NCBI GenBank assembly: GCA_025384855.1
Contig: JALAHT010000001.1
Location: 561,064 to 625,063, forward strand
DNA from: Luteirhabdus salina
Lineage (GTDB): Bacteria > Bacteroidota > Bacteroidia > Flavobacteriales > Flavobacteriaceae
Direction: 5' to 3'
Length of the DNA: 64,000 nt
The notes below the pieces were generated by a model that saw only the letters and a list, made by a program, of their open reading frames with translations, was not told where the DNA came from and did not search any database. Below are positions 20,502 through 37,589 of the stretch, in pieces. A program made the position numbers and the translations under genes. Within the stretch, counting starts at the first letter, position 1; every line of letters starts with the position of its first letter.

Positions 20502-21728
20502 CTAAAGTCTATCGGAAATTGCCTTGGCTACCATAAATCCTCCCGTCCATGCATTCTGAAAATTAAAGCCTCCCGTTACGGCATCGATGTTTAGCACTTC
20601 TCCCGCCAAGTATAAGTTTCGATGTTTTTTGCTTTCGAAGGTTTTGAAATCGACTTCCACTAAATCCACCCCTCCGGCAGTGACGAACTCTTCCTTAAAG
20701 GTGCTTTTTCCTTCTACTTGAAAAGTAGCATTGGTAAGTTGTTGGGCCAACGTTGAAATATCGGCGTTCGATAAGTGCGCCCAATTCGCTTCCTTTGCAA
20801 TTTTGGAAGCTGTTACCAACCGTTTCCAAAGACGTTTCGGTAAGTCGAATTGTGGATGGGTAGCGACTTGTTTTTTGGCAAGCGATAGTTTCAATTCCTT
20901 CAGCATTTCCACACATTCCGCTGCGGAAACATCCATCAGCCAATTCACTCTAATAGAAAAATGATACTCCACCGTAGCCAAATCGCGTGCACCCCAAGCG
21001 GAAAGTTTAAGAATCGCCGGACCGCTCATTCCCCAATGGGTAATCAGTAATGGCCCATCCGCTTCAAGTGATGTATTTGATAGTCCTTCAATTCGAATTG
21101 TGGCTGGCGTAGAAACCCCTGCCAAACCTTCAATTCGGGAATCTTGAATATTAAAGGTGAACAAGGAAGGTACGGGTGAAATAATGGTATGTCCCAACCG
21201 TTTCAACAGCTTCCATATCTTCGGATTGCTACCCGTAGCAACCACTACGGAAGAAGCAACAAACTGTTCTTCTTTTGTTTCTATATGCCAATATTCATCA
21301 TCAAAGGTGACCTCTTGTACCGAATGACCTGTCAACACCTCAACCCCTAACCGATTGGCTTCACCTAAAAAACAATCGATAATAGTTTGGGAATCGTCTG
21401 TTATGGGAAACATACGGCCATCATCTTCGGTTTTCAGCGGAATGCCCTTTTCTTCAAACCAACCGACTGTATCGCCCGTCATAAAAGTATGAAATGGGCC
21501 TAAGAGCTCTTTTTTTCCACGCGGATATTGTTCCACCAATTCCTTTGGAAGAAATTCGGCATGGGTAACATTGCAGCGTCCGCCTCCAGAGATTTTGACC
21601 TTCGTCAATACTTCCTTCCCCCGCTCCAAAATGATGATTTTGAGATTCGGCTTTTGTTCCGCTAAGTTAATAGCTGTAAAAAACCCCGCGGCACCACCGC
21701 CAACGATTATGACGTCGGCCGATATCAC
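20502..21728 (-). CDS. HI0933/BaiN-like FAD-dependent flavoprotein (aminoacetone oxidase family)
   Basis: N-terminal dinucleotide fold (VIIVGGGAAGFF), GGGRCNVTH motif and C-terminal GGFNFQNAWTGG. Confidence 0.8.
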   Translation of the reverse strand: MISADVIIVGGGAAGFFTAINLAEQKPNLKIIILERGKEVLTKVKISGGGRCNVTHAEFLPKELVEQYPRGKKELLGPFHTFMTGDTVGWFEEKGIPLKTEDDGRMFPITDDSQTIIDCFLGEANRLGVEVLTGHSVQEVTFDDEYWHIETKEEQFVASSVVVATGSNPKIWKLLKRLGHTIISPVPSLFTFNIQDSRIEGLAGVSTPATIRIEGLSNTSLEADGPLLITHWGMSGPAILKLSAWGARDLATVEYHFSIRVNWLMDVSAAECVEMLKELKLSLAKKQVATHPQFDLPKRLWKRLVTASKIAKEANWAHLSNADISTLAQQLTNATFQVEGKSTFKEEFVTAGGVDLVEVDFKTFESKKHRNLYLAGEVLNIDAVTGGFNFQNAWTGGFMVAKAISDRL

Positions 21729-23164
21729 CTGTTCAGTTTTTCAGCGCCAAATCCTTCACATAAATCGATGGTTTCCTTTACGTGTTCCATCGTCGTACGT
21801 GGATTGATCAAACACATACGAAGTACAATCTGGCCGTTTAAAACAGTAGTTACTAATAAAGCTTCACGAGAGCCGACCACCTTTTCGGAAATATATTGGT
21901 TCAATTTATCGAGCTCTTTTTCACCCAACTTTTCCTTAATCGGATTGTACCGAAAGTTGATCACTGCTAAGGTCGCTGGAGAAATTACTTCCCAATACGC
22001 ACTTTTACGAAGTAAGGCCTCGGTGCGCTCTGCCATTTCAATATTGTAGGTAATCGCTTTGCGAAAGGCTTTTAGTCCGAAAGTCTTTACGCTCATGTAG
22101 AATTTCAAAGCTCTGAAACGCCGGGTAAGCTGAACTCCGTGGTCGTAAAAGTTTATTTCACTTTCATTTCCTTCTACATCGCGCAGGTATTCTGGTTTTT
22201 CGGTGAAGGTATTCTTCAGCCATTTGCTGTTTCGGACTAACAAACAGCCCATTTCATAGGGTTGAAAAAACCACTTATGCGGATCGACCGTTAACGAATC
22301 AGCTTTTTCGATGCCTTTCAGCAATTGCTTACCGTTTTTCGCTAAGATTGCAGCACCACCATAGGCGCCATCTATATGAAACCAAAGTCCTTCACTTTTA
22401 CAGATTTTGGATAGTTCGGTAAGCGGATCGACCGTTCCTGTGTTCGTGGTACCTGCCGTTGCCACCATGCAAAAAGGTTGAAGTCCTTCTAACTTGTCTT
22501 TTGCGATAGCATTTTTCAGCTTATTGATGGAAAGCTTGAACTCTATGTCGGTGGGAATGATGCGAATTTGTTCTTTTCTAAACCCTAGAATTCGGATGGC
22601 CTTGATATTCGATGAATGCGCCTGATCGGAAAGATATATAACCGCCTTGCTAAAATCGTCTCCGCACTTAATGCGTCGTGCCGTTACGATAGCCGTTAAA
22701 TTTGCCATCGAGCCTCCGCTGGTAAAGATTCCGCCTCCCTTTTTTGGTGGGAAGCCGAAGATTTTCAACAACCAGTTAAGCGTAACAATTTCCAATTCTG
22801 CCGCGGCTGGACTTGCAGCCCATCCCCCAGAAAAAATATTAAACCCAGTAGCCAAGGTATCGGCCATGGCACTGACGTAGTTGCTTGGTCCCGGAACGAA
22901 GGAGAACGATTTTGGATGTGAAACGATAGCACTTTGCGTCATTACATTCTGAAGCACAAAATCTAATACCTCTTGCGCATCGGACGGTTTTTCGGGTGCT
23001 TCTTCCAGAAACATCCTATCCATTTCGGAACGAGAGGCCAATGCCACCGGTTTCTTGTCATTTTGCGTAGCCGTATGGTCTACTACGGCATCCACGATGG
23101 AATAACCATATTCCTTCATTTGCTCCTTCGATAATTCCAACCTTGCATTTGCGTCCAGTTTCAC
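21725..23164 (-). CDS. Group II PLP-dependent amino-acid decarboxylase (aromatic-L-amino-acid / DABA decarboxylase family)
   Basis: SGGSMANLTAI… and the DPHKW PLP-lysine motif. Confidence 0.8.
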   Translation of the reverse strand: MKLDANARLELSKEQMKEYGYSIVDAVVDHTATQNDKKPVALASRSEMDRMFLEEAPEKPSDAQEVLDFVLQNVMTQSAIVSHPKSFSFVPGPSNYVSAMADTLATGFNIFSGGWAASPAAAELEIVTLNWLLKIFGFPPKKGGGIFTSGGSMANLTAIVTARRIKCGDDFSKAVIYLSDQAHSSNIKAIRILGFRKEQIRIIPTDIEFKLSINKLKNAIAKDKLEGLQPFCMVATAGTTNTGTVDPLTELSKICKSEGLWFHIDGAYGGAAILAKNGKQLLKGIEKADSLTVDPHKWFFQPYEMGCLLVRNSKWLKNTFTEKPEYLRDVEGNESEINFYDHGVQLTRRFRALKFYMSVKTFGLKAFRKAITYNIEMAERTEALLRKSAYWEVISPATLAVINFRYNPIKEKLGEKELDKLNQYISEKVVGSREALLVTTVLNGQIVLRMCLINPRTTMEHVKETIDLCEGFGAEKLNR

Positions 23165-23272: not shown

Positions 23273-24745
23273 CTATCGAACAACCAACTTTCGGATGGCC
23301 GCCTCGGTATCAGTTTCAAAACGGATAAAGTAAACGCCTGCAGCTACAGGAAGGTTCACCGTATTTTCACCACTAACGACCGCTACTTCAAATACATTCT
23401 TCCCTGTAACATCATAGACGGAAAGCGTTTCAAAGCCTACCATATTATCGAAATTGATGGTTCCTTTGGAAGGATTCGGATAGAAGCTAAAGTCTTGTAA
23501 GATTTCATCTTCAACAGAAAACTCTGCACAGCTAATTGGATCAAAAATTACTTCACCCAAAGAACTATCGTCGGGTTGATGAAAGATTACTTCTTCCGCA
23601 TCGGCTAAAGAATTCGGGGCATCATTTTCTTTCCAACAGTTATTTTTCGCCTGAATCGTATTTGGTGTGTTGTTGTATAAAGCAAAGGTTTGACCACTGT
23701 TTTCATTTTCGGAAAAGATGTTATCCCCAGAATTGTTTACTTCATCACCCAAGTTGATTGATGCTTCCCCTTGTAGCGTAATGCCCCAAAGGTTTCTGCG
23801 AATTTCATTTCCTTGCGCAATCACTTCCATTCCGCCAGAAGATGTATTAAGGTTAATACCACTTCCACCTAGGTTAGGATCGCCTTGGGTGTTATTGTCT
23901 TCAATCACATTAAAACGCATATAGGCGAACGAATTATTCCCTAGCATGGTAATTCCATACCGGTTGTCGGTAATAACATTATCATCAATTATCGCTCGGA
24001 TGTTGCCACCAACAAAGTTTGCAATGGCAATTCCCCCCACTTGGTCAAGGGCAGGATCGCCTTTAATCGTGTTTTGAATAATCTTTAGTGAATCGTTCAC
24101 TTTCGTGATTCCCAAATTGATTTGCGGACGGTTGCTATTCTCTTGTGTATTCCCTTCAATATAATTGTTGAAGATGTAGGGTGAAACTTCAATATTGGCA
24201 CCCGATGAAATCGCCGGCAACTGATTAAAAGTTATCGTATTATTCGTGATTTGTGGTACTCCCCGAGAAAGGGAAATGGTTCCGCCGGTAGTAGCACCTT
24301 CTACATTGTTTGTCAACGTACAGTTATTTAAGGTGAAGGTTTCGGTCAACACTCGCAATCCACCCCCAAATTGGATGGTACTGTTTTGAATATTGATCTC
24401 TGAGAATTCCTCGAAGCGAAATCCTTCGTATGGTGCTGCTTCATCGATGGCAGTAAAGGTGACATCATCGGCCGTAACCTCAAATGTTCCAAATACCGTA
24501 ATCAAGAGATCGGCATCGATGGATAAGGTTAGGTCTTCATCGATAATTACTGTATCGGAAGCGGCAATTTCAAGATTTTCCAACAACTCGTATTGATCGC
24601 CACTAACCGTAATCGTACTCGGGCTCGCATTCGCGATATCGTCGAGCGTCCAAACGACTCCAGTATCGGGAGTTGTAAACGTCTGTGCCAATAAAACAGC
24701 TGGCGTAATAAATAGTAAAAGGAGTAAAAAAGTATTCTTTTTCAT
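23273..24745 (-). CDS. T9SS-secreted protein with right-handed parallel beta-helix repeats and C-terminal Por sorting domain. Start taken at MKKNTFLLLLLF (signal peptide).
   Basis: Signal peptide. Beta-helix-type Asn/Gly/Thr-rich repeats. C-terminal about 80 aa with T9SS CTD character (…FYPNPSKGTINF…LSVYDVTGKNVF…GVYFIRFETD…). Confidence 0.75.
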   Translation of the reverse strand: MKKNTFLLLLLFITPAVLLAQTFTTPDTGVVWTLDDIANASPSTITVSGDQYELLENLEIAASDTVIIDEDLTLSIDADLLITVFGTFEVTADDVTFTAIDEAAPYEGFRFEEFSEINIQNSTIQFGGGLRVLTETFTLNNCTLTNNVEGATTGGTISLSRGVPQITNNTITFNQLPAISSGANIEVSPYIFNNYIEGNTQENSNRPQINLGITKVNDSLKIIQNTIKGDPALDQVGGIAIANFVGGNIRAIIDDNVITDNRYGITMLGNNSFAYMRFNVIEDNNTQGDPNLGGSGINLNTSSGGMEVIAQGNEIRRNLWGITLQGEASINLGDEVNNSGDNIFSENENSGQTFALYNNTPNTIQAKNNCWKENDAPNSLADAEEVIFHQPDDSSLGEVIFDPISCAEFSVEDEILQDFSFYPNPSKGTINFDNMVGFETLSVYDVTGKNVFEVAVVSGENTVNLPVAAGVYFIRFETDTEAAIRKLVVR

Positions 24746-24902
24746 GATTTTATTGAATTTTTTCCAAAAATACGTACTCATGTTGCAGTACCCAATGAAT
24801 TCCCTAAAAAGATTAAGGGTTGAAGTGAAGTTTCCTCTTAAATTTTTCTCAAATTGAAGGGTGTGGTTTAACAAGGTCAAAAAATCCCCGTACTTTTAAA
24901 GA

Positions 24903-25958
24903 ATGGAAATCGTACTATACGTCCTTACCGTATTTTTTATCGTTACGCCATACCTGCCAGCCACCGAGCATCCGCATTGGTTTTATCGGATGCCCGATTT
25001 TGTGCGACTGCAAACCATTGGGATACAGCTATTGCTAATCGTATTATTTTTCTTCATAATACAACCGTGGCACTTAGCCGACTACATCATGGTGGCAGCA
25101 TTGCTGGTTACCCTAATTTATCAAATTGTAAAAGTATTTCCCTACAGCAAGTTGTATCCAAGGCAAAAACCCGATTTTGAAAGCGGGGGTTGTGTTTCCA
25201 TCTTGGCCGGTAATGTTTTTCAGGACAACCACAGCTACGATAAGTTTATTGCAGAAGTAAAACGATTCGATCCAGATATGGTATTGACGATGGAGTCTGA
25301 CCAGAAATGGGAAGATGGTTTGAGCGAATTAGAAGAAACCTATCCCCATACAACCAAGATTCCGTTGGATAATTATTACGGAATGCATCTTTACAGCAAA
25401 ATTGCCCTAAAGAATTTGGAGGTTCATTATCATGTTGAAGACGACATACCTTCTATTTTATTCGAATGCCCCGTAACCGAAGCCCAAGATGTATTCTTTG
25501 CCTGTTTGCATCCTGCCCCACCAAGTCCGACTGAAAATGAAACCTCGAAGGAGCGCGATGCTGAGTTGATGATGGTAGGTAAAAAGATTCGTGAAATGAA
25601 AAAACCAGTGGTGGTGTGTGGCGACATGAATGATGTGGTTTGGAGTAGAACAACACGATTGTTCAAAAAAATGACGGCTATGATCGACCCGCGTATCGGA
25701 CGCGGTTTCTTTCCTACCTACCATGCGGGATATCGATTAATGCGGTTCCCTCTCGACCATTTGTTCCATACCAAGGATTTATTTGTGAAGACGATGATCC
25801 GTAGTAACAACTTCGACAGCGATCATTTTGCGATGTATTACGAAATTCACTTACGTGCGGGTAGAGGACCTGAAACGAAAGGCGAATTGGATACAGAGGA
25901 AAAACATGAAGTGGAGGAAAAGATTGAAGAGGGCATTGAAAAAACCAAAGAATCTTAA
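24903..25958 (+). CDS. Endonuclease/exonuclease/phosphatase (EEP) family membrane-anchored hydrolase
   Basis: N-terminal TM helices. EEP C-terminal motifs (…DHLFHTKDL…SDHFAMYYE). Confidence 0.7.
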   Translation: MEIVLYVLTVFFIVTPYLPATEHPHWFYRMPDFVRLQTIGIQLLLIVLFFFIIQPWHLADYIMVAALLVTLIYQIVKVFPYSKLYPRQKPDFESGGCVSILAGNVFQDNHSYDKFIAEVKRFDPDMVLTMESDQKWEDGLSELEETYPHTTKIPLDNYYGMHLYSKIALKNLEVHYHVEDDIPSILFECPVTEAQDVFFACLHPAPPSPTENETSKERDAELMMVGKKIREMKKPVVVCGDMNDVVWSRTTRLFKKMTAMIDPRIGRGFFPTYHAGYRLMRFPLDHLFHTKDLFVKTMIRSNNFDSDHFAMYYEIHLRAGRGPETKGELDTEEKHEVEEKIEEGIEKTKES

Positions 25959-28900
25959 TTTCTATCCAATCCCTTTTCCAAAACCGAACGAATGCCTTCT
26001 AAATTAGTACTAAATTCCATCATCTGAAGCAGCAGTTGTGCCATTTCATTTTTATCACCCAATCCCTTTAGTTTATTGTTCTTTTCAAAGGTTTCCTTAA
26101 TAGATTCCCATCGCTCCTTTTCTTCAGCCGTGAGTGTTCCTCGCAATTCTCTAAATTTCAAAAGGTTTGCTTCTGCGGAAGCATTTAGCGTTTGGGCTTC
26201 ACTTTCATAATGTGAAAGAAGGAGTGTATCGATTTCCTTTGTATTCATAATCGGTACAACTTTCGCCACCAACTTATTCATATCCCGATAAGAGCCTTGA
26301 AGCTTGAAAGGGGGTTCGGTTCGATACGCATCTTCCATAGCAGCACTTTTGATGTATGTTTTATTTACGGCTAACACTGTTTCACGCACCATGACAATTT
26401 TTTCCAATACCGATTCGTAGTCCTTTACTTCCTGCGAACTATAGTTCCCAAGTAATTGACCATCGGCTGTATGGTTTTCAACCCGATCCAATAAGGTATA
26501 GAAATCTTCAAAGTGAACGCTGCTTAATTGGTGCATCAGCGGATTTGAGGTTAGTGCGTTTTCAACCAAACTCAGTTTAAACAGATGTTCGGTATCCCCG
26601 ATAATATCTCCCAAATTGTAAATATCGGCCCGGTTTGCTAACATATCTGGTATCTGGAATTTTTCACCACTTTCCGTATACGGGTTTCCCGCCATCACCA
26701 CGCAGAACTTTTTTCCGCGTAAATCATAGGTTTTCGATTCGCCTTTATGAACCCCCTCAATTTTTCGGGTTCCATCAGAAAGAGATATAAATTTCTGCAG
26801 AAATTCGGGACTACAGTGTTGGATATCATCCAAGTAAAGCATCACGTTATTCCCCATCTCAAAAGCGAGGTTCAGTCGCTTTAATTCTTCTCGGGCGGCA
26901 CTGTTAGTCGCTGCCATGGGGTCGACAGAGGTAACTTCATGACCGATGGCCGGACCGTTAATCTTCACAAATACCAACCCGAGTCTATTGGCAATGTATT
27001 CCATCAAGGTTGTCTTACCATATCCTGGTGGTGAAATGAGCAGCAGCATTCCCATTCGGTCCGTTCGCTTGGCATCGCCTACAGTTCCCAACTGCTTCGA
27101 CAAATTATCGCCAATCAACGGCAAGTACACTTGGTCTATCAGTTTGTTACGTACGAAGGAGGTAAGCACTCTAGGCTTAAATTCTTCAAGCTTTAAGTTC
27201 TTCTTCATCTGCTCTATAACAGCATGTTTCGTCTTACGGAAATGTTCGAAAGCCGGCACCTTTTCACCTAAGAAGATAGCCATTGAATTCATGAATTCAT
27301 GGTAATCGAATTGGAATGCTCCCTCCTTAATAGTTTCATGACTACCTTTTAGGTTTTTGATAGTTGCGGTAGGCGATGCATTTTTGGTGGCTGAAACTGA
27401 GGCATCTTCAAAAATGATTGCACAAACTACCTCATCGATATACTTGCGATGCGTAGCGAGGTTCTCCGTAGCCGAAGTACTTTTGATATATGCCGAAACC
27501 CACTGACGAACCAATCGGATTTTAGCCTCGTATGATGATGCCTCTTCATAGCCTTTCTTAAATTTGATATCGGCCTGTTGTTTCTTTAAGGCTTTTTGGA
27601 AGTTATCACTTAGTGTCCCTGCTTCCGCGCTCTGGATAAATGTTGCATCACCTTGCAATTCCTCAAAAATGTATTGAGCGATATTTTTGGTCATTACAAC
27701 ATCAAAAAGCGGAGCTTCCTGCAGGAAAACTTCAATCTGACGACAAATTTTTTCAATAATATAATCATATTCAGCGCTGTTGGGAAAACATTGAATAACC
27801 ACTCCAGAAGCTTTTATAGCGCGGTCTAGTATGCCGCGATGTTGCGCCTTCATTCCATGCCAAAAGAATTGCGCATTGGCTCTGATCTCTGGGTGAAATT
27901 TTAATAATCCTAAATCGAGATGTTTTTGAATCAGCACTTGTAAAATTGCCGTCGCATCATGATCGTGAACTCCCTTGATGTATCCTTCCGCATACGATTC
28001 TCTACTCAGGTTTTGAACAAACTGGAGCAGTTCGCCATCGTTGTGGTGAAGTGTATCTTCATTACTTACTTTCGCAAAAGCCTTGTACGCTAGGTACGCG
28101 CCTCGATATACCGCCTTGTTTTCCGAGATATACTCTTGTTCCCACAAGTCAGCGGATTCCAAAAGGGTTTCATCGGTGATGCTTTCATAATAGTCCGTTC
28201 CGGTGAGGTGGGCCTGCAAGCCCTCTTTTTTGTGAACGATAGTAAGGTCTAACGGTTGTCGGTTTACACCAAATTTATGACTACCCAATCGAATAACATT
28301 TTCACCATCCTCATACAGTTCGTTCTTATCCTTTAGTTTTCGCAACGCTTCTTCGCGAGCGGTTTTCAATTTGGTTTCAATGGCTTCCGCTTTTCCACTA
28401 TCCTCCATTTCACGAAGCTTCTGAATAATGTCGCGTACCTTATTCACCATTAGGTCAGAAGCAAAATATCCATTCACTTCAGCACCGGTAGTGAAACGCT
28501 CTGCCTTTTTCTGAACACCATTTAGGATACGCGTTGCGGCACTTTCAAAAGCAACGGCTTTTTTGTTTCGCTTTTCAACCAATGCATTTTTCTGGGCTTC
28601 GAAAGCGGCATACACCTCTTCCCTTTTTTCGATAATCACTTCAATAAAAGCTTCGAAATCGGCAAACTTCCCTTCCAATTCCTCTAGCTGAACCGAAATC
28701 TTATTTTGAAATTCATCACATTTCTCCGGCGTGGCAGCCATATCGAGATAATTGATGATACTTTGGTCGATAAGCTTCAGTTGCGCCGCAAAATCGGCTT
28801 CGGCCTCGGCTTTAACCAAAGACTTCCGCTTGTTTTTCAAGCTTGCTTTCAACTGATTGATAGAAGCGAAGATTAAGGAAATATCATCGATAATCTTGGT

Positions 28901-30847
28901 GCTCTGAGCAGTATCTTCAATGGAAAGATTTGAAACAATGTCGATCAACATTTCAAGTCCCTCCGCAATCTCATTAATTTCAGCTTCTAGCTTTTTAGCT
29001 TCGGTAACCTTCGACACTTTTTGAAGCATCTTTTCCTTTTCGGCCACGGCATCCTGATATGGTTGAAGCGCTTTCGGATTCAATAGAAATTGAACACAGC
29101 GCTCTGAAATCCGTTCTGTTTGCGTAGCGATTTCTTCCTCTAGCGATTCGGCGAAAGAAATCTCGACATACCGGATGTCCTTCAAGGAGATTGTTTCTCC
29201 CCTCACGCCCCTTAACTTCGACAAGGCCTGCACATACTCCTGAATCGATCGAAAAGAAGTGCTTTTTATCTTTCCGAATAAATCCTCAACTTTTTTAGAA
29301 ACCTCCTGCGAAGCATTCTTGGCCTTTTTCTTCAGTTGCTGAACCTTTTCGAACTCCTCGATTGCAGCATTCGCTGCATCATTTATTTCACCTAAAGGCT
29401 CATTAAGTTTCTTGGTCTCTGGCTCTGGCAACCAATAGTAGGCGTCCAGGATATCCTTCGAAAACTTTGCAATATCGCTATAAAGACTTTGGTAACTATC
29501 TTCTTTGTTCAATAGCGTAATTAGCCCATTAATTTCAGCCATCGCCTTCACGATATCCTTGTTACCGATTTTATACAGCAAACTATCCTCGTGTTGCGAT
29601 GGCATATAATCGCCCTTCAAAAAAGGTGTTTGCCAAATCTGAATAACGTGATGCTTGGTCTGTTCGGCCTCCGTCTTAAAGTAACACAATTCACCTTGCT
29701 CTAAAATGGTGAATCCATTACAGATAATCGGCGTTTTAATTTCTTGTGAAATGACGTTATACGCCATCAGATTATAAAGGCTTTTATCTGGCGCATAAAA
29801 GACATATAGAAAATCTTCCCCATTGGGAGAAACAATCTTTTCCTGAAACTGGACATTGGGAATGGCATTATCGAAAATGGAATACTCCCCTGTCTGAAGG
29901 TAATATCCCGTTGGAAAAATAATGCCTTGATCGTCTGGCAGCAATACACAGGTATCCTTAATACTTTCAATCTTTTGTACTTCCTTGATTTTATGGTTGT
30001 ATACAAAATATCGTGGAGGTTCCTGAAAGGGTTTTATTTCTAATACCACTAGGTTGCCAAGGTTTGCATAACGATATTGACCGTCATCTAGGGTTTGATC
30101 CTTATGCTCGACACCTTCCGAAAAAATACCCTTGCCATCTTCGGTATTGTCCTCAATTTTTATGGTTAGGTCACCACCGACGGTTTCTACGAATACTTTA
30201 TCCAAAATGGATACATGTGGGTGTACGCCATAACGATGCATATCTCGTGTAACCTCCTGCCAATTGAATTCGTGTTGCGCTGGAAACGTATACTCATGAT
30301 CGCTTCGGTTATCGACATAGGACAACGAATCGTCCTTTATCAACCACTTGAAGGTCTTGATATCCGATGTACTCTCACTTAATTGAAATACCATATACAG
30401 ATAGTTTCCAATTATCGAAAACTTCGAGAATATGGTATTCCGGTAATATTTATAAAGATTGGTGAAATCGGTAATAAAGGTTTCGTCCTGCAGCATTTCC
30501 ATAGGCAGCGGTTCGAACCTATTATCCTTAAAGCGGTATAAACTGAAGACATCGTCTAGGGTGATATCTGTTCGAAGACCGAAATGGACATTATAACCAA
30601 ATAAACACGTATTTCCTAGTGAAACGATATCGCGCGCAATACAGTTATTTTCAGTATTGATGCGATCGTTGGCCACCAACTTCGTTTCCAGCGAGCCAAA
30701 AACCGTCTTGCGCTCGTCGTTGAGCGCTTGCAGGCGATTCTGCAGCGTTTGTTTCTGCTTCTGAAGGCGATTCTGAATGATTTCATAGGTACCACCATCA
30801 AGCGTAGGGTTTTGCTGTACTTTTTGTTCGTCGGATGTTGATGCCAT
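25955..30847 (-). CDS. Giant (1630 aa) coiled-coil protein with a single C-terminal MoxR/AAA_5-type ATPase module. Sometimes carried in annotations as 'DNA repair ATPase-like'.
   Basis: Walker A (LISPPGYGKTT), Walker B (VMLYLDDIQH), MoxR-like sensor segment (VVMAGNPYTESGEKFQIPDMLANRADIY). About 500 aa of heptad-rich coiled coil in the middle. Intergenic spacing suggests co-transcription with the flotillin, NfeD-like, PspA and YbjN-like genes downstream. Confidence 0.8.
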   Translation of the reverse strand: MASTSDEQKVQQNPTLDGGTYEIIQNRLQKQKQTLQNRLQALNDERKTVFGSLETKLVANDRINTENNCIARDIVSLGNTCLFGYNVHFGLRTDITLDDVFSLYRFKDNRFEPLPMEMLQDETFITDFTNLYKYYRNTIFSKFSIIGNYLYMVFQLSESTSDIKTFKWLIKDDSLSYVDNRSDHEYTFPAQHEFNWQEVTRDMHRYGVHPHVSILDKVFVETVGGDLTIKIEDNTEDGKGIFSEGVEHKDQTLDDGQYRYANLGNLVVLEIKPFQEPPRYFVYNHKIKEVQKIESIKDTCVLLPDDQGIIFPTGYYLQTGEYSIFDNAIPNVQFQEKIVSPNGEDFLYVFYAPDKSLYNLMAYNVISQEIKTPIICNGFTILEQGELCYFKTEAEQTKHHVIQIWQTPFLKGDYMPSQHEDSLLYKIGNKDIVKAMAEINGLITLLNKEDSYQSLYSDIAKFSKDILDAYYWLPEPETKKLNEPLGEINDAANAAIEEFEKVQQLKKKAKNASQEVSKKVEDLFGKIKSTSFRSIQEYVQALSKLRGVRGETISLKDIRYVEISFAESLEEEIATQTERISERCVQFLLNPKALQPYQDAVAEKEKMLQKVSKVTEAKKLEAEINEIAEGLEMLIDIVSNLSIEDTAQSTKIIDDISLIFASINQLKASLKNKRKSLVKAEAEADFAAQLKLIDQSIINYLDMAATPEKCDEFQNKISVQLEELEGKFADFEAFIEVIIEKREEVYAAFEAQKNALVEKRNKKAVAFESAATRILNGVQKKAERFTTGAEVNGYFASDLMVNKVRDIIQKLREMEDSGKAEAIETKLKTAREEALRKLKDKNELYEDGENVIRLGSHKFGVNRQPLDLTIVHKKEGLQAHLTGTDYYESITDETLLESADLWEQEYISENKAVYRGAYLAYKAFAKVSNEDTLHHNDGELLQFVQNLSRESYAEGYIKGVHDHDATAILQVLIQKHLDLGLLKFHPEIRANAQFFWHGMKAQHRGILDRAIKASGVVIQCFPNSAEYDYIIEKICRQIEVFLQEAPLFDVVMTKNIAQYIFEELQGDATFIQSAEAGTLSDNFQKALKKQQADIKFKKGYEEASSYEAKIRLVRQWVSAYIKSTSATENLATHRKYIDEVVCAIIFEDASVSATKNASPTATIKNLKGSHETIKEGAFQFDYHEFMNSMAIFLGEKVPAFEHFRKTKHAVIEQMKKNLKLEEFKPRVLTSFVRNKLIDQVYLPLIGDNLSKQLGTVGDAKRTDRMGMLLLISPPGYGKTTLMEYIANRLGLVFVKINGPAIGHEVTSVDPMAATNSAAREELKRLNLAFEMGNNVMLYLDDIQHCSPEFLQKFISLSDGTRKIEGVHKGESKTYDLRGKKFCVVMAGNPYTESGEKFQIPDMLANRADIYNLGDIIGDTEHLFKLSLVENALTSNPLMHQLSSVHFEDFYTLLDRVENHTADGQLLGNYSSQEVKDYESVLEKIVMVRETVLAVNKTYIKSAAMEDAYRTEPPFKLQGSYRDMNKLVAKVVPIMNTKEIDTLLLSHYESEAQTLNASAEANLLKFRELRGTLTAEEKERWESIKETFEKNNKLKGLGDKNEMAQLLLQMMEFSTNLEGIRSVLEKGLDRN

Positions 30848-30967
30848 AGGGCAATTGAAATTACTTCGGTTTCACTTTAAAAAATGGGAATAGTAGCTAT
30901 ATGAAACTATCCATAAACAGCGCTAACGGCCTTCCGCAATACACGGAAGGCTGCTACGCCACTTCAC

Positions 30968-33034
30968 TTAAGATAGTTTTTTGGAATCTAGTCCTAGTCC
31001 TTTCGCAAGGTTAAACAGATTGCTAAACAAAGTCTGTTCTTCTGCGTCGTCTGATCGCTTCTTCAGGTCCATTAATAGATTGGCGATGGTCAGGTTCTTG
31101 ATATCTTCGGAAGAGATGCCATATTTTTCAGCAAACTCCCGAACTTTTTCAAGTAAGTTGCCTTTTACATCTTCACTACCAAGGATAGCATCCTTCACCT
31201 GCTGAATGTTTTGACTGTTTTCGACGAGTCGATCGAATCCTTTTCCTTTTGTAATCTGACCGATAATTTGCTCGAAGAACATAGTTTCACCACCCACGAT
31301 ATCGATCTTCGCTGCTTTTAAGGCATCTCCGATTACCTTCGCTTGGGCGTCGGCGATATCTTTTTGGATATTGATATGAGCAAGGTCTACCTGAAGTTCT
31401 TTATCTAGGCGTAACTTGAACTCTTCGTGGTCTTTTCCAACGCCATCCAATTTCTTCATGGCATTTGCTTTCTCTTCGATTCCGGCTGCATCGGCAAGGG
31501 CTTTTTCCTTGATGACTTCAGCCTCTGCCATTCCATCCTTACGCTTTGCTTCCGCTTTCGCCTGAATACCGGCAGCTTCAGCGGTAGCGCGTTTTTCGAT
31601 GATAAGAGCTTCCACAATACCTTGACGCTCGTTGGCATCTGCTTTGGCATGCATTACTTGTGCTTCTGATAGTCCAACCGTAGCCTCTTCTTTCGCTTGT
31701 GCTTCTGCAAGAATCTTACGTGCCTCGGCTTTCTTCTCACTTGCTTCCTTATCGGCTTGTGCTTCGATATTGATTTCCTCTGCGCGTTGTTTAGCGGCCT
31801 CTTTTTGAGCTTCGGCAGCCTTGATCGTTTTAATAAGATCTTCCTGGGCGTTTGCCTCTGCGACAGTAATCTTCACCTGCTTATCACGGTCGGCGGTTTT
31901 AAAGGCTTCAATATCCTTCATATTCTCCTGCTCTTCAACCACGCCTTTTTCAAGCATTACGCGGTCGCGAATAACATCTTGGATATTTTTCTTTTCAACC
32001 TCAACAACCTTTTCTTTTTCAATTTGCGCTAAGGTTACTACTCGTTCGCGCTCGGTAGCTTCCAACAGGCGATCTTTCTCTACGCGCTCTGTCTCAACGG
32101 CATCTGTTCGTTGTTTGTTTTTCAGGGCAACGATAATCTGTCGCTCCATGTTCTCTTCGGCTATCTTCACCTTTTCATGGGTTGCGATACGAGCCGTTTC
32201 AGATTTTAAGCGCTCTTCTTCTGACACTTTTAAGGTTTCGGCCTCTTCGCGCGCTTTTATATTAGCTATTTCACGTTTTTGCTGCTCTTCTTTTTCTGAA
32301 AGTTGCTTATCAAGCTCCAAAATTGCCTCCCGCGCTTCCACATCTTGCTTGCGGATGGTTTTTTCCTCATCTCTTTTGATAAGGTTCGCCTTGATATTTT
32401 GGGCTGCGGTAAGCTCTGTAATCTTTTTGATACCCTCTGCATCCAAAATATTGTCTGGCTTCAAAGAAGTAACAGCGGTTTGCTCTAGGAAGTCGATAGC
32501 ACAATCCTCCAACGTATAACCATTTAGGTCGGTACCGATAATGTTTACGATTTCGTCACGGAACTCGCGTCGCGCTTCATAAAGTTCGGTAAACTCAAAT
32601 TTCTTACCTACGGTTTTCAAGGCTTCCGAAAACTTCGCCTCGAAGAGATCCTCTAAAGTTTCGATACGGGAAGCACGGTTTACCCCGATGGTTTGGGCTA
32701 CCTTTTTAATATATTGGATATCATTGTTCACTCGAACAAAGAATGCTACCTTAATATCGGCCCGCATATTATCCTTACAGATAAGACCTTCAACACCTAG
32801 GCGTTCAATTTGGATTTTCTTGACCGAAACATCCATAATTTCCACCTTGTGAAAGACCGGTACGACATATAGTCCTTTATCGGTGGCAACTTTCGTACCT
32901 CCAAATCCAGTTCTTATAAGCGCTTGTCCTTGCGCCACTTTTTTGTAAAACATCGCGATTATCGCGAAGTAGACAATAATTAGGAAAAGGAGTATACCTA
33001 TCCCTGTGCCAATAATTGGTAAAATTGATTCCAT
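30968..33034 (-). CDS. Flotillin-family (SPFH/band-7) protein with extended Glu/Ala/Lys coiled-coil region
   Basis: N-terminal TM, SPFH domain (…YVVPVFHKVEIMDVSVKKIQIERLG…) and long EAxxK repeats. Confidence 0.85.
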   Translation of the reverse strand: MESILPIIGTGIGILLFLIIVYFAIIAMFYKKVAQGQALIRTGFGGTKVATDKGLYVVPVFHKVEIMDVSVKKIQIERLGVEGLICKDNMRADIKVAFFVRVNNDIQYIKKVAQTIGVNRASRIETLEDLFEAKFSEALKTVGKKFEFTELYEARREFRDEIVNIIGTDLNGYTLEDCAIDFLEQTAVTSLKPDNILDAEGIKKITELTAAQNIKANLIKRDEEKTIRKQDVEAREAILELDKQLSEKEEQQKREIANIKAREEAETLKVSEEERLKSETARIATHEKVKIAEENMERQIIVALKNKQRTDAVETERVEKDRLLEATERERVVTLAQIEKEKVVEVEKKNIQDVIRDRVMLEKGVVEEQENMKDIEAFKTADRDKQVKITVAEANAQEDLIKTIKAAEAQKEAAKQRAEEINIEAQADKEASEKKAEARKILAEAQAKEEATVGLSEAQVMHAKADANERQGIVEALIIEKRATAEAAGIQAKAEAKRKDGMAEAEVIKEKALADAAGIEEKANAMKKLDGVGKDHEEFKLRLDKELQVDLAHINIQKDIADAQAKVIGDALKAAKIDIVGGETMFFEQIIGQITKGKGFDRLVENSQNIQQVKDAILGSEDVKGNLLEKVREFAEKYGISSEDIKNLTIANLLMDLKKRSDDAEEQTLFSNLFNLAKGLGLDSKKLS

Positions 33035-33049
33035 AAAGCAAATTTGGTT

Positions 33050-33760
33050 TTAATCGTTATAAGCTTGCACTAAAAAATAGTTGTGGTCTGCCGACCGTTT
33101 TATGATGAGCACCTGGGTTCCATAGGCCAAGGGAGCACCGTCTAACGACTTTACATAAATAGCATTGCTATTTCCCTCGACGACAACTTCGGCATTGCCC
33201 ATTTTATCTTCTGAAATAGATGACAGCAATAGCGCCTGGCGTCCGAGATAATCGATAGGCGCGTCGCCATCCTTATTAAGGTTCTTGAAAAATCCTTTGA
33301 ACGGGGTGGTAAAGATCTTATTGATAAACAAAGCTGGAAACAGCGCCAATAGCATCACTAAGAAACCGATGAAATTATCATAGGTAAAGGTAAGCGCGGT
33401 TACCAGTACTGTCGTAAACCACCAAATAAAGATCCAACAGGTGAAGGTGAACATAAATGGCAGTCCGACAAAGTTGAAATAGATCAAAAATATCTGCCAC
33501 CACTTTAATGGCTTCCTACGCTTCCCAACTACGTCTTCCTGGTTCACTTCGGCATTAGAAATGTCTTGGAAATCCATGTTGCCGCCTTCAATCCCCGAGT
33601 CTACATCGATATCAGCATCGACATCCACCTCTACATCAAAGTCGAGGTCGAAATCCAACCCACCAATCATCGTGATGATCCAATAGATAATGAGAAGGAT
33701 GAGTAGAATTGACAGGACACTATTTACCTCCGAAAAAAGTATGTTGAAAAAATCGCTCAC
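33050..33760 (-). CDS. NfeD-like membrane protein (TM helices, acidic DVDVD linker, C-terminal OB-fold-like beta domain)
   Basis: Two hydrophobic blocks. C-terminal …AEVVVEGNSNAIYVKSLDGAPLAYGTQVLIIK… resembles NfeD short-form beta-barrel. Adjacent to flotillin, as NfeD genes typically are. Confidence 0.45.
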   Translation of the reverse strand: MSDFFNILFSEVNSVLSILLILLIIYWIITMIGGLDFDLDFDVEVDVDADIDVDSGIEGGNMDFQDISNAEVNQEDVVGKRRKPLKWWQIFLIYFNFVGLPFMFTFTCWIFIWWFTTVLVTALTFTYDNFIGFLVMLLALFPALFINKIFTTPFKGFFKNLNKDGDAPIDYLGRQALLLSSISEDKMGNAEVVVEGNSNAIYVKSLDGAPLAYGTQVLIIKRSADHNYFLVQAYND

Positions 33761-33762
33761 GT

Positions 33763-34479
33763 TTAGGCGTCTTTACCGTCGTTCATCCCCAATTGTGCCT
33801 TCAATTTATCAAGTTCTTCATCTGCTTTTGCCTCCGATGTATCGGCGGCTTTGTCCAGTTCCTCATCGACCGACTTATTCGCATTTGCGATATCGCCATA
33901 GGCTTCAGCCAGTGCTTCTTCCTGTGCCACCTTTTCCTTCATACGTTCCAGCATAGAAACCGTTCCCGCACTGTCCAACTCTGCCATTTGTTTGTTAAGG
34001 TTCTTGGTAGCATTGCTTACCTTAACGCGTGCCTTCAGCGTTTTAAGTTCGTTTTCCCAGTTGCTGATATTGGCTTTTATGGTTTGAACATTTTTCTGCA
34101 ATTGTGCCACATTATTATCGAATTTCTCAGATTCGTTTTTGGCCTGTTCTGCTTGCTTTTCGGCAGCTTCTTTTTGCATCAAGGCTTCCTTGGCCAAACG
34201 ATCGGCTTCGGCAGCGTCCATTTCCTTATTATGTCCTTTTTTCAGAATGATGATTGCCTTATCCTGATATTCCTGCGCTTTATTTTGATGGTTTTCCTGG
34301 TCGTTTTTAGCCCGAATTGCTAAAGCTTTCACTTTTGCCAATGCCTCAAGGCTTTTTTCAAGATCTAGTTTCATATCGCGGATTCCCTGCTCCGTCATTT
34401 TGATAGGATCTTCCATCTTATCGATGGCTGCATTCGTTTCCGCTTGTCCGATTTTAAAGAGTCGTCTGAAGATATTCAT
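33763..34479 (-). CDS. pspA: PspA/IM30 (Vipp1) family protein
   Basis: N-terminus MNIFRRLFKIGQAETNAAIDKMEDPIKMTEQGIRDMKLDLEKS is the canonical PspA/IM30 start. All-helical coiled coil. Confidence 0.85.
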   Translation of the reverse strand: MNIFRRLFKIGQAETNAAIDKMEDPIKMTEQGIRDMKLDLEKSLEALAKVKALAIRAKNDQENHQNKAQEYQDKAIIILKKGHNKEMDAAEADRLAKEALMQKEAAEKQAEQAKNESEKFDNNVAQLQKNVQTIKANISNWENELKTLKARVKVSNATKNLNKQMAELDSAGTVSMLERMKEKVAQEEALAEAYGDIANANKSVDEELDKAADTSEAKADEELDKLKAQLGMNDGKDA

Positions 34480-34491
34480 AGTACGTCGATT

Positions 34492-34887
34492 TTAATAGTT
34501 AGAAAATTCAATGATTTGTTCGGAATACTCACTTAGCAATAAGCTTAGGGAGTTAAGGCTGCCTTCCAACTCGTTCAAATCCATATTCTCAATTTGAAGG
34601 GTATCGCGGAAAATAACTTTCCTTCCGGTTTCATCAAGCACAAAAGCACCATGAATAATGTCGCGATTCTTCTGCAACAGATTTTGAAACACTTTTTCTG
34701 ACTGGTTGTTAATCGTAAAAATAAATTGCTCTAGGATTAAAATGGGAGGCGCTACTCCCAAAATCAGATTACGTATTCCTGCATTTTCCTTTTGAACTAC
34801 CAAAACACCATCTTCCTTATTTTCATGTGTAATGTTGAAATTCAACTCCAATAGAAAATCTCTTGTGATGGTAAAATGGTTTTTCAT
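34492..34887 (-). CDS. YbjN-like small cytosolic protein
   Basis: About 130 aa. Pattern recalled from YbjN family members that are frequently encoded with PspA. Confidence 0.45.
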   Translation of the reverse strand: MKNHFTITRDFLLELNFNITHENKEDGVLVVQKENAGIRNLILGVAPPILILEQFIFTINNQSEKVFQNLLQKNRDIIHGAFVLDETGRKVIFRDTLQIENMDLNELEGSLNSLSLLLSEYSEQIIEFSNY

Positions 34888-35101
34888 GTTAAAAAAGTTT
34901 TAAAAATGAAACAAGATGTCAATAATACAAAATTATTTTAGCCTTCGCCCGTATTTTTTTTCACACCCTATTAATGATTACAATTAAGTAAACTACCGAA
35001 GCAATAATGCTCAAGAAATTAGCTATACTTAATCTTTTTCGCTAATATTGTTAGTCAAATATATCACTTATTTTTAATATTGCAAATAAAATTAGCAATT
35101 T

Positions 35102-35857
35102 ATGTCAAAATTTGGCAAAAATATCAGAAAAATTAGAAGCGTGAAGACTCTTAGTCAGCAGGCCTTTGCAGAGTTATTCGGGCTCAAGCGCGGTACATTG
35201 GGCGCTTATGAAGAAGGTAGAAGTGAACCGAAAATAGAGACCATTATAAAAATTGCTAATCATTTTAGCATCCCTATCGACGACTTGCTAACGAAGGAAC
35301 TTACCGTCAATAAACTTTTAAAATTTAAAGGCGATTTGGCTATCGAGGATTCTTCCTCACCTACGGAAACCTTTGCAAGAGTACCGTGCATCACACCGAA
35401 GACCAGTGGTGAATATATGCATCGTTATAAAGATAAATCGTTCTTACTACAACTTCCAGCACTTTCGCTTCCTATCAATCCAGAAAAACGCTTCCGAGGA
35501 TATACAGTGGAAAATTTGGAAATGGGCAGCAACGACAAAGGGTTGTTTCCGAAGGATATTGTGATTGGGGAGGTAGTTCCAAAAAATGTCTACAAGAAAT
35601 TAAACAACGGCGTTTTGGTCTTGGTACTAGCAAATAACGCGTTGATTCTACGTCGCTTGTATATTGCGAAGGACATCGCCACCCTTCGTGCCGATCATAA
35701 GAATGTAGAAGAGATGAGCATACCGCTTTCAGATATAGAAGAGCTATGGCGTATTCGATATGTGTTCTATCACCGCTTACCTGATCTAAAAGAAGGATTG
35801 GAGGAAAAACTTCAAAAATTGGAAAAGGAGTTTGCTAAAATTCGCAAAGGGCTATAG
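35102..35857 (+). CDS. XRE-family HTH transcriptional regulator with uncharacterised C-terminal domain
   Basis: N-terminal HTH_XRE (IRKIRSVKTLSQQAFAELFGLKRGTLGAYEEGRSEP). Confidence 0.7.
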   Translation: MSKFGKNIRKIRSVKTLSQQAFAELFGLKRGTLGAYEEGRSEPKIETIIKIANHFSIPIDDLLTKELTVNKLLKFKGDLAIEDSSSPTETFARVPCITPKTSGEYMHRYKDKSFLLQLPALSLPINPEKRFRGYTVENLEMGSNDKGLFPKDIVIGEVVPKNVYKKLNNGVLVLVLANNALILRRLYIAKDIATLRADHKNVEEMSIPLSDIEELWRIRYVFYHRLPDLKEGLEEKLQKLEKEFAKIRKGL

Positions 35858-36374: not shown

Positions 36375-37589
36375 ATGTCGTCAAATGCAAAAATAGTACT
36401 ACGCAAAAAACCGAACAGTAAAGGTCTATATCCACTAGCTATTCGTATCACAAAAAATCGTCGCTCAACATACCAATATATTGGTCATTATATCGACTTA
36501 GAGGATTGGGACGAAAAAAACATTCGAGTAAAAAAATCAAATCAAAACGCAGAAAGTTTAAACAAGTTGTTATCACAAGAACTTTCTGATGCCAATAAAG
36601 CACTTATTGATTTGCAATCAGAACACAAAGATGCTTCTGCAAACCAAATCAAAAAAGAGCTATACGCATTGGGTAATACTTCTACCTTTTTTGAACTTGC
36701 CCAAGAGCATCTCAATGAATTGAAAGCTGCTGAAAAATTAAACCGCCTATCCACAGATAGTGCTTTGGTAACTTATATCTTAAAATTCAATAAATCCAAA
36801 CAACTTTCCTTTCAGGAAATCGACGAGCGTTTCCTGAAGAAATTGATGATATATCTAAAAGTTGAACATTCTCTAGCTGAAACGTCAATAATGAATATAC
36901 TGGTATTTATCCGCTTATTGTTCAATAGGGCAATAAAGCTTAAAATTGTTAGTAGGGAATTGTACCCTTTTGGTGGTGATAAGATTAAAATTAAATTTCC
37001 GGAAACAAATAAAATTGGGTTGAATATTATTGAAGTAAGAGCTATAGAGGCTCTTGATAATTTAACGTTAGCTGAAATGCACACAAGAAACGTTTGGCTT
37101 TTCAGCTTCAATTTTGCAGGAATGCGAGTTACTGATGTACTATGGACAAAGTGGTCCGATATTTATGACGGCAGACTACATTATAGAATGAATAAAAACT
37201 CGAAATTATTATCATTGAAAATACCAGATAAAGTTTTTAAAATTTTAGACTACTACAGGGACGACAAGAGATACCCAACGGATTTTGTTTTCCCTGAATT
37301 GAAAAAAGCGAATCTCGATGACGCTAAAGACATCTATAACAAAAGAAAGACAGCTACCAAAAAATTTAATGATAATCTAAAGTCTATTGCTAAAAAGGCA
37401 AAAATAGATAAGAAGGTTACTATGCACATTGCGAGGCATACTTTTGGTAACATCGCTGGTGATACCATTCACCCCTTAATGCTTCAGAAGCTATACCGCC
37501 ATAGCGATTTAAAGACAACATTAAATTATCAAGCTAATTTTATACATAAAGAAGCTGATGATGCCTTGGAAAGCGTAGTAAATTTCTGA
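36375..37589 (+). CDS. int: Tyrosine-type site-specific integrase (phage integrase family)
   Basis: C-terminal catalytic region with R…HxxR…Y (…MHIARHTFGNIAGD…LYRHSDLKTTLNYQANF). N-terminal SAM-like/core-binding domain. Confidence 0.85.
   Translation: MSSNAKIVLRKKPNSKGLYPLAIRITKNRRSTYQYIGHYIDLEDWDEKNIRVKKSNQNAESLNKLLSQELSDANKALIDLQSEHKDASANQIKKELYALGNTSTFFELAQEHLNELKAAEKLNRLSTDSALVTYILKFNKSKQLSFQEIDERFLKKLMIYLKVEHSLAETSIMNILVFIRLLFNRAIKLKIVSRELYPFGGDKIKIKFPETNKIGLNIIEVRAIEALDNLTLAEMHTRNVWLFSFNFAGMRVTDVLWTKWSDIYDGRLHYRMNKNSKLLSLKIPDKVFKILDYYRDDKRYPTDFVFPELKKANLDDAKDIYNKRKTATKKFNDNLKSIAKKAKIDKKVTMHIARHTFGNIAGDTIHPLMLQKLYRHSDLKTTLNYQANFIHKEADDALESVVNF

Follow-up and report, generated by a model that had tools for sequence, protein, structure and literature searches.

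A 64,000-nucleotide stretch of the Luteirhabdus salina genome (NCBI GenBank assembly GCA_025384855.1, contig JALAHT010000001.1, positions 561,064 to 625,063 of the forward strand; hereafter, the window) carries an operon of five minus-strand genes that joins a giant AAA+ protein of 1630 amino acids (aa) to a flotillin-like SPFH protein, an NfeD-like membrane protein, a PspA/IM30 protein, and a small CesT/Tir-like protein. The conserved core of this operon is the NfeD-flotillin-ATPase set, because the flotillin and NfeD genes are near-invariant neighbors of the ATPase gene, whereas the PspA gene accompanies it in about half of the loci and in Bacteroidota only. The CesT-PspA pair and a divergently transcribed regulator are a Bacteroidota extension of the core. 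With moderate confidence, we read the unit as encoding a scaffold of flotillin and NfeD that would lie against the membrane from the cytoplasmic side and would have its own AAA+ remodeller of the MoxR/dynein clade, and to which PspA and a chaperone would have been added under stress regulation in the Bacteroidota.

All five open reading frames (ORFs) lie head to tail between positions 25955 and 34887, as a first-pass annotation of the same DNA had described. In the direction of transcription, they are the gene of the CesT/Tir-like (YbjN-like) small chaperone (34887-34492; 131 aa), the PspA/IM30 gene of the yjfJ-like type (34479-33763; 238 aa), the gene of the YqiJ/YuaF-type short NfeD-like membrane protein (33760-33050; 236 aa, GTG start), the flotillin-like SPFH gene (33034-30968; 688 aa), and the gene of the cytoplasmic AAA+ protein (30847-25955). 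The spacers between them measure 12, 2, 15, and 120 nucleotides (nt). The ATPase gene is the last to be transcribed; it had been called the first gene of the operon because plus-strand coordinate order had been used. The five-gene unit of the first-pass annotation also omitted two elements that are kept with the operon in other genomes and belong to it, namely a helix-turn-helix (HTH) regulator gene (35102-35857, plus strand) and a hairpin between the flotillin and ATPase genes.

The conservation of the neighborhood was examined starting from DUF3686, the N-terminal Pfam region of the ATPase. A HMMER search with this region against 1.84 billion cluster representatives (50% identity) returned 730 representatives at E ≤0.001 and 251 at E ≤1e-30. 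When a 31-member alignment was scanned against one genome per species, at least 579 hits were confirmed, and the best 80 loci were fetched. These loci came from Bacteroidota (Flavobacteriia, Sphingobacteriia, Cytophagia, Bacteroidia, and Saprospiria), Planctomycetota, Verrucomicrobiota, Kiritimatiellota, Desulfobacterota, and Clostridia, and included Flavobacterium, Bacteroides, Chryseobacterium, and Sphingobacterium. Partner genes were identified by phmmer searches of the window proteins against the six-frame ORFs of the 80 loci. Sixty-five loci with more than 3 kb of upstream sequence were informative for flotillin and NfeD, and 63 with more than 6.5 kb were informative for PspA, CesT, and HTH.

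A flotillin gene was found upstream of the ATPase gene on the same strand in 62 of the 65 informative loci, and an NfeD-like gene upstream of flotillin in 61 of the 65. The linkage is far beyond chance. PspA was present in 32 of the 63 informative loci; a CesT-like gene directly upstream of PspA and a divergent HTH gene next to CesT were each found in 31 of the 63, the HTH gene always together with CesT-PspA. Every locus bearing PspA, CesT, or HTH belonged to the Bacteroidota. In some loci, flotillin and the ATPase are separated by inserted genes of variable kind, and all-against-all clustering of the ORFs of the 80 loci revealed no other family in more than nine loci. The claim of conserved linkage therefore stands for flotillin and NfeD, whereas the complete five-gene order with PspA and CesT is kept in about half of the loci, within Bacteroidota. 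The proposal that the ATPase is the energy-consuming partner of a PspA/flotillin module is divided in the same way, being backed by the linkage to flotillin and NfeD and weakened by the restricted linkage to PspA. The emphasis of the interpretation should thus move from PspA to flotillin and NfeD.

The 688-aa protein consists of an N-terminal hydrophobic anchor, an SPFH domain, a long coiled coil rich in E, A, and K, and a C-terminal domain. No Pfam match was obtained when the protein was scanned whole, probably owing to the low-complexity coiled coil; the first 230 residues alone matched Band_7/SPFH (E 1.4e-15, 58.3 bits against a cutoff of 23.6, residues 32-223). The Pfam Flot domain (PF15975) was not detected in any scanned segment. 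An SPFH domain that runs into a long coiled coil rich in E and A, with NfeD encoded directly upstream, is a flotillin-type context, and homologues in other genera of the Flavobacteriaceae, which are 86-92% identical, carry the source names flotillin family, YqiK, or SPFH. The Band_7 match and these names uphold the identification of the gene as a flotillin. In comparisons across genera, the flotillin is 86-92% identical, whereas the ATPase is 66-72% identical. The stronger conservation of the flotillin is in keeping with a scaffold that oligomerizes extensively and works with an enzyme under weaker constraint.

The 236-aa protein comprises a first transmembrane segment, an acidic loop of D-x-D repeats, two further transmembrane segments, and a C-terminal beta (OB-like) domain. 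The protein itself gave no Pfam match to either YqiJ_N or NfeD. Among 25 NfeD-like orthologues from several phyla, nine matched YqiJ_N (best E 4.5e-7) and one matched NfeD (E 0.0049), and the architecture is conserved across 25 aligned sequences (the window protein and 24 orthologues). The earlier description of an NfeD-like membrane protein with an acidic linker thus holds for the layout and through the orthologue matches, although the protein has no Pfam match of its own. A label of YqiJ/YuaF-type short NfeD protein appears reasonable on the grounds of transitive homology, architecture, and position upstream of the SPFH gene. The acidic D-x-D-x-D loop (residues ~36-80) was present in all 25 orthologues. 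The basic KRRK stretch after it suggests that the loop faces the cytoplasm; cations, or a partner with a basic surface, might be bound there.

The 238-aa protein is a member of the PspA family, as had been annotated, with a match to PF04012 (PspA_IM30; E 4.6e-42, 144.5 bits against a cutoff of 33.9, residues 2-229). Its scores were far under the NCBIfam equivalog cutoffs (61 versus 243 bits for TIGR02977 and 45 versus 380 for NF045984, LiaH). By these scores, it is classified as a PspA-family member and not as an orthologue of the studied E. coli PspA or LiaH. The 131-aa protein matched PF22550 (CesT_Tir_1) over its full length (E 1.4e-55, 187.2 bits against a cutoff of 27). Its scores for YbjN (18.4 against a cutoff of 22; E 0.0027) and for classical CesT (16.4 against 22) were below the cutoffs. 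The previous name, YbjN-like, therefore reflects a weak similarity, and CesT_Tir_1 is the best identity of this protein.

The giant protein contains three regions recognized by Pfam: DUF3686 (PF12458, E 7e-182) at residues 35-471 (29435-30745, minus strand), DUF7902 (PF25472, E 2.5e-28) at residues 592-676 (28820-29074, minus strand), and a weak AAA/AAA_5 match at residues 1268-1393 within a single AAA+ module of residues ~1230-1530 (26258-27160, minus strand). Full-length members of the family have 1600-2036 aa, with DUF3686 at the N-terminus in every case; the Dokdonia ATPases are 72% identical to the window protein, which is itself 100% identical to a protein of Flavobacteriaceae bacterium TK19130. 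The ATPase carries no transmembrane or signal sequence, while both the flotillin and the NfeD-like protein have N-terminal hydrophobic segments. In an AlphaFold model of residues 1-480, which has a predicted local distance difference test (pLDDT) score of 54, the DUF3686 region is composed of an N-terminal helix followed by about 30 beta-strands. All 50 of the matches listed by Foldseek for this model against the PDB were beta-propellers (WD40/DCAF1, prolyl-oligopeptidase propellers, TolB, and GH43 enzymes among them), with TM-scores of 0.1-0.18. The poor model lends support, in a soft sense, to a beta-rich, propeller-like N-terminal region; Ravi et al. (PMC11237479) likewise labeled this region a beta-propeller. 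Residues ~420-860, which contain DUF7902, are poor in Pro and Gly, rich in E, K, Q, R, L, and A, and helical or coiled-coil-like. It had been stated that about 1200 aa of the protein are mostly coiled-coil or helical; this description suits residues ~420-860 and does not suit residues ~60-420, which are beta-rich in the model. Residues ~845-1230 are of mixed composition and have no detectable relatives.

Invariant residues of the ATPase were identified in an alignment of 31 diverse sequences with 29-47% identity to the window protein. Conservation along the protein is highest in the AAA module. The Walker A motif (GYGKT) is invariant, as is the Walker B pair D1340-D1341, which is DD and not DE. 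N1388, read as sensor-1, R1406, a candidate arginine finger, and GSYR1521, a candidate sensor-2, are also invariant. With regard to the helix-2 and pre-sensor-2 inserts of the MoxR/AAA_5 clade, the candidate arginine finger and candidate sensor-2 lie 115 residues apart, a distance that hints at an insert. In addition, an invariant G959-H961-D962-D964 motif (GVHDxDA, residues 959-965) was found in the middle region.

Three motifs pointed out earlier (GYGKTT, LYLDD, and NPY...IPD...ANRAD) are all present, and the assignment of the AAA module to the MoxR/AAA_5 type was upheld at the level of the clade. The score for Pfam AAA_5 exceeds the cutoff, and the motif NPYTESGEKFQIPDMLANRAD agrees with the MoxR/AAA_5 type, as does the pattern NP...E.G...P...(N/D)R(A/F)D. 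A model of residues 1150-1630 (pLDDT 68) shows the AAA+ strand order, with a pre-sensor-1 beta-hairpin at ~1362-1375, between helix 3 and strand 4. MoxR-family modules (NorQ, CbbQ, and RavA) and the AAA_5 modules of dynein and midasin were the best structural matches. The AAA_5 match, the pre-sensor-1 hairpin, the structural ranking, and NPYTESGEKFQIPDMLANRAD together support a resemblance to the MoxR/dynein clade. This assignment is a soft one. Foldseek was unable to separate the clades and placed RuvB, FtsH, Vps4, NorQ, Rubisco activase, and PspF all at E 1e-5 to 1e-3. When all PDB sequences were searched with the single protein and with the family profile, p97/VAT, Rix7, and RuvB matched, and only at the level of Walker A; sequence similarity to solved AAA+ proteins is confined to this region. 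No MIT domain was detected by Pfam in the whole protein or in its segments, and the ATPase does not qualify as a member of the Vps4/classical AAA clade, which is marked by an N-terminal MIT domain, a classical second region of homology, and nearest structural neighbors of the classical AAA kind. The comparison with Vps4 that had been drawn therefore concerns a different AAA+ clade and is an analogy only.

A control region of 214 nt (34888-35101) separates the CesT gene from the divergent XRE/Cro-type regulator gene. The regulator has an HTH at residues 5-66 (Pfam HTH_19 and HTH_3, E ~2e-11); this part is strongly conserved, whereas the C-terminal domain is variable. The C-terminal domain aligned weakly with the S24 domain of LexA (E 0.06), with Phe and Arg at the positions of the Ser/Lys dyad, and neither Ser nor Lys is conserved in this domain among 16 orthologues. 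It is probably a non-catalytic LexA/CI S24-like domain used for sensing or dimerization rather than for self-cleavage. Ravi et al. listed this regulator as 'cHTH+Protease' (PMC11237479). The control region contains three GCTAAT/ATTAGC hexamers at 35091-35096, 35041-35046, and 35018-35023. Hexamers at similar offsets (~5, 55, and 78 nt from the HTH start) were seen in eight loci (L001-L004, L006, L009, L015, and L017), and the loci bearing them include Leeuwenhoekiella, Tenacibaculum, Maribacter, Aquimarina, and Robertkochia. It is plausible that they are operators of the divergent regulator. The sequence TAATTTTG, located ~55 nt upstream of the ATG of CesT, matches the Bacteroidota −7 box TAnnTTTG, and we infer from this consensus that it is a candidate promoter element of the CesT operon.

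A stem-loop at 30913-30967 (minus strand) stands directly 3′ of the flotillin stop codon. For the 120-nt flotillin-ATPase spacer, the folding energy is −34.5 kcal/mol (z = −3.0), and none of 200 shuffled sequences was as stable. The core of the hairpin is a 9-bp G+C-rich stem at 30929-30951, with no clear U-tract. Where related loci have a spacer of 30-260 nt, most carry a comparable hairpin at the same site (L003, L012, L031, L046, and L047, among others), and across phyla its position, not its sequence, is conserved. In several loci (L013, L015, L017, L049, L063, and L080) it is followed by a run of T, and these hairpins look like intrinsic terminators or attenuators. The window hairpin is a candidate attenuator or transcript-stabilizing hairpin. 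Its presence suggests attenuation, with less ATPase than scaffold proteins being made, or separate transcription of the ATPase gene, and it complicates the view that the operon yields a single transcript. No Rfam family matched in the region. The flotillin-ATPase spacer is invaded by small ORFs in several genomes (L014, 5662-6186; L056, 9316-9813; L072, 6802-7251). By eye, these ORFs look like IS200/REP-type tyrosine transposases, which suggests that the spacer is a preferred insertion site.

According to the reading that we favor, the locus would encode a module for membrane maintenance, in which the flotillin-like SPFH protein would presumably cover the inner leaflet as a large cage or cap, and a MoxR/dynein-clade ring in physical contact with it would use ATP to move or remodel the flotillin assembly or the clients held by it. 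The propeller-like domain and the long helical region of the ATPase would act as a partner-binding head and a lever. In the Bacteroidota, this core would have acquired PspA together with a dedicated CesT/Tir-like chaperone, which may keep PspA unpolymerized or deliver it, and a Cro/CI-like repressor would make the operon inducible by envelope stress. The hairpin that precedes the ATPase gene probably keeps ATPase expression below that of the stoichiometric scaffold proteins.

Several observations weigh against this reading. A literature search found no experimental result on any member of the ATPase family, in agreement with the earlier statement that no such protein has been functionally characterized. 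Both models are of low to moderate confidence, and the propeller and AAA+ clade assignments are correspondingly soft; Foldseek ranks RuvB, FtsH, and Vps4 about level with NorQ. Given the invariant DD of Walker B, the ATPase may hydrolyze ATP slowly and serve as a switch, not a motor. MoxR ATPases usually have a VWA-domain partner, and none recurs beside the ATPase in the 80 loci. Flotillin is not upstream in three of the 65 informative loci, and the hairpin may mean that the ATPase is transcribed apart from the scaffold genes.

It is also conceivable that the ATPase remodels polymers of PspA, an ESCRT-III-like protein, and thereby is a functional analogue of Vps4, with flotillin and NfeD serving only as a membrane platform. 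PspA and the CesT-like chaperone share the operon with the ATPase in the window and in 31 to 32 of the 63 informative loci, and the genomes that have the three-gene core could encode PspA elsewhere. According to a review, no Vps4-like partner of bacterial PspA is known, so that this role is vacant (PMC7619361), and Ravi et al. suggested ATP-dependent remodelling for associations of PspA with AAA+ proteins (PMC11237479). However, in about half of the loci, including all of those outside the Bacteroidota, the ATPase, flotillin, and NfeD genes occur without a linked PspA. Furthermore, the AAA module resembles MoxR and dynein and not the classical clade of Vps4, and the ATPase has no MIT-like domain that could be detected. 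We therefore regard this explanation as unlikely.

Somewhat less probable still is that the giant protein works mainly as a structural tether or a nucleotide-gated switch, a long coiled-coil spacer linking flotillin cages to another structure in the cell, with ATP binding governing assembly instead of driving mechanical work. The invariant DD of Walker B would suit such a role, and so would the ~440 residues of helical or coiled-coil-like sequence joined to a separate propeller-like head. In addition, neither a VWA partner nor a recognizable substrate-handling domain was found. On the other hand, the 31 sequences share without exception the Walker A motif, sensor-1, and the candidates for the arginine finger and sensor-2, which argues for a working hydrolytic cycle, and the AAA module is the part of the protein that has been conserved best.

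The operon lies close to a mobile segment. A tyrosine integrase gene (Arm-DNA-bind_5, SAM_5, and Phage_integrase; 36375-37589, plus strand) borders a stretch of low GC content (0.33 at 36-38 kb), and this segment starts ~500 nt beyond the HTH gene. The integrase is followed by a metal-resistance island that extends to ~59000 and includes a resistance-nodulation-division (RND) pump (38228-41980), an outer-membrane factor, a multicopper oxidase (44295-46640), an ArsP-type permease, a heavy-metal P-type ATPase (53238-55754), and a CusB-like adaptor (57006-58748). On the other side of the operon, an endonuclease/exonuclease/phosphatase (EEP)-family gene (24903-25958, plus strand), whose product has an N-terminal segment with multiple transmembrane helices and an EEP domain (E 3e-30), converges on the ATPase gene with a 4-nt overlap and is not kept beside the ATPase in other genomes. 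Farther downstream, on the minus strand, are a gene with a type IX secretion system (T9SS) C-terminal sorting domain (Por_Secre_tail; 23273-24880) and a pyridoxal phosphate (PLP)-dependent decarboxylase gene (21725-23164), both of which are unrelated to the operon.

The nearby integrase and low-GC segment, along with the general knowledge that giant coiled-coil ATPases are common in defense systems, could be taken to indicate an anti-phage or conflict system on a mobile island. This is very improbable. A PADLOC search with the five proteins yielded only chance-level matches (E ≥0.002) arising from coiled-coil or P-loop similarity, and the adjacent island consists of metal-resistance genes. Moreover, the gene order is kept across genera of the Flavobacteriaceae, with the high flotillin identity given above and a distribution that looks vertical, which is not the patchy, fast-evolving pattern of defense genes. 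No nuclease or other toxic effector is linked to the unit, the EEP-family gene not being conserved with it.

Finally, it is scarcely credible that the ATPase is an SMC/RecN/Rad50-type DNA-repair protein that stands beside membrane genes by chance, since only the source name 'DNA repair ATPase' and the Pfam description of DUF3686 speak for it, while the family profile matched no SMC, RecN, or Rad50 protein among all PDB sequences, fold searches returned AAA+ and other P-loop NTPases and not SMC-type proteins, Walker B follows Walker A after ~65 residues in a single AAA+ domain and not in an ABC-type head split by a coiled coil, the neighbors are invariably membrane-scaffold genes, and the literature search found no paper that mentions DUF3686. 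The suspicion that the repair label, which the sources apply to the window ATPase, is spurious was thus borne out.

The operon bears on two questions: the source of power for flotillin or ESCRT-III-like assemblies in bacteria, and the way in which SPFH/flotillin cages, whose structures have lately been solved, are opened, turned over, or loaded. It hard-wires a dedicated AAA+ protein to a flotillin and its NfeD partner and, in the Bacteroidota, to a PspA that has a chaperone of its own. PspA and Vipp1 polymers belong to the ESCRT-III superfamily, and a Vps4-like ATPase is said in a 2025 review to be apparently absent from bacteria (PMC7619361). It is possible, though doubtful, that the DUF3686 ATPase is the missing energy-consuming remodeller of membrane scaffolds, a MoxR/dynein-clade motor whose propeller head and coiled-coil lever would serve to assemble, open, or strip flotillin/NfeD cages and which, in the Bacteroidota, would also act on PspA polymers. 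If this is true, it would match Vps4 in function without being homologous to it, and would be the first regulator powered by ATP to be known for a flotillin. The operon is present in Flavobacterium, Bacteroides, Chryseobacterium, and Sphingobacterium, in all of which genetic work is established, and this comparative-genomics lead, for which no follow-up was found in the literature, is a worthwhile experimental target.

Associations of these protein families have been reported in other settings. Popp et al. 2022 (PMC9239133) noted that, in Bacteroidota and Acidobacteriota, pspA has genes for band-7 proteins, FloT, NfeD, and HTH proteins beside it, and in Bacillus an SPFH protein tethers PspA at the membrane (PMC8581546). 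SPFH proteins assemble into cages attached to the membrane (PMC11260169, PMC12624060), and the AAA+ protease FtsH sits inside an HflK/C enclosure (PMC13220708). Cage complexes of SPFH proteins with NfeD and the stabilization of unfolded proteins by FloA-NfeD are cited in PMC13086221.

Compared with the ESCRT-III/Vps4 system of archaea and eukaryotes, the window locus is alike in that the gene of a PspA/ESCRT-III superfamily polymer stands near an AAA+ gene. It differs in that the ATPase belongs to another AAA+ clade, has no MIT domain, and is linked more tightly to flotillin than to PspA. HflK/C-FtsH shows that an SPFH assembly can work with an AAA+ hexamer at the cytoplasmic membrane; FtsH, however, is a membrane-anchored protease of the classical AAA clade, whereas the window ATPase is soluble, lacks a protease domain, and has propeller and coiled-coil extensions. 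In contrast to MoxR chaperones, the ATPase has no linked VWA partner, a DD Walker B, and a single AAA module placed after an N-terminal extension of ~1230 residues. In the pspA-ydjGHI (samGHI) operon of B. subtilis, PspA and an SPFH protein are co-operonic, as in the window, but the SPFH protein YdjI is of a soluble type, its partners are YdjG and YdjH, and neither an ATPase nor a CesT-like chaperone is encoded. The E. coli yqiJK and B. subtilis yuaF-floT operons resemble the window in having a short NfeD-like gene with multiple transmembrane segments directly upstream of a flotillin-like SPFH gene. These two operons are not known to carry a giant ATPase gene, and their flotillins are shorter, with ~510-550 aa as opposed to the 688 aa found here.

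The closest counterpart is the operon described by Ravi, Anantharaman, Aravind, Gennaro et al. (mSystems 2024, PMC11237479; bioRxiv 2020), with Dokdonia donghaensis as an example. Its parts are a CesT/Tir-PspA dyad (ANH61663.1), a band-7/flotillin protein, a 'beta-propeller-coiled-coil-AAA+ ATPase', and a 3TM (three-transmembrane) protein typified by YqiJ/YuaF, for which ATP-dependent membrane dynamics was proposed. All six genes of the window unit, including the divergent regulator, occur in the order of this operon class and match the Dokdonia entry in its context table; nothing essential differs. The composition of the operon had therefore already been described when the first-pass annotation presented it as an uncharacterized system, and the operon is known as a comparative-genomics prediction, so that its value lies in being an experimental entry point and not in its discovery. 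Ravi et al. also noted a broader distribution for shortened operons, in which flotillin and the YqiJ/YuaF protein occur with or without the ATPase (PMC11237479), and this wider spread is reproduced here with counts for flotillin and NfeD. To this operon class, the present analysis adds the linkage counts, the resemblance to the MoxR/dynein clade, the conserved hairpin, the operator-like hexamers, the invariant DD of Walker B, and an S24-like domain of the regulator that appears to lack a catalytic dyad.

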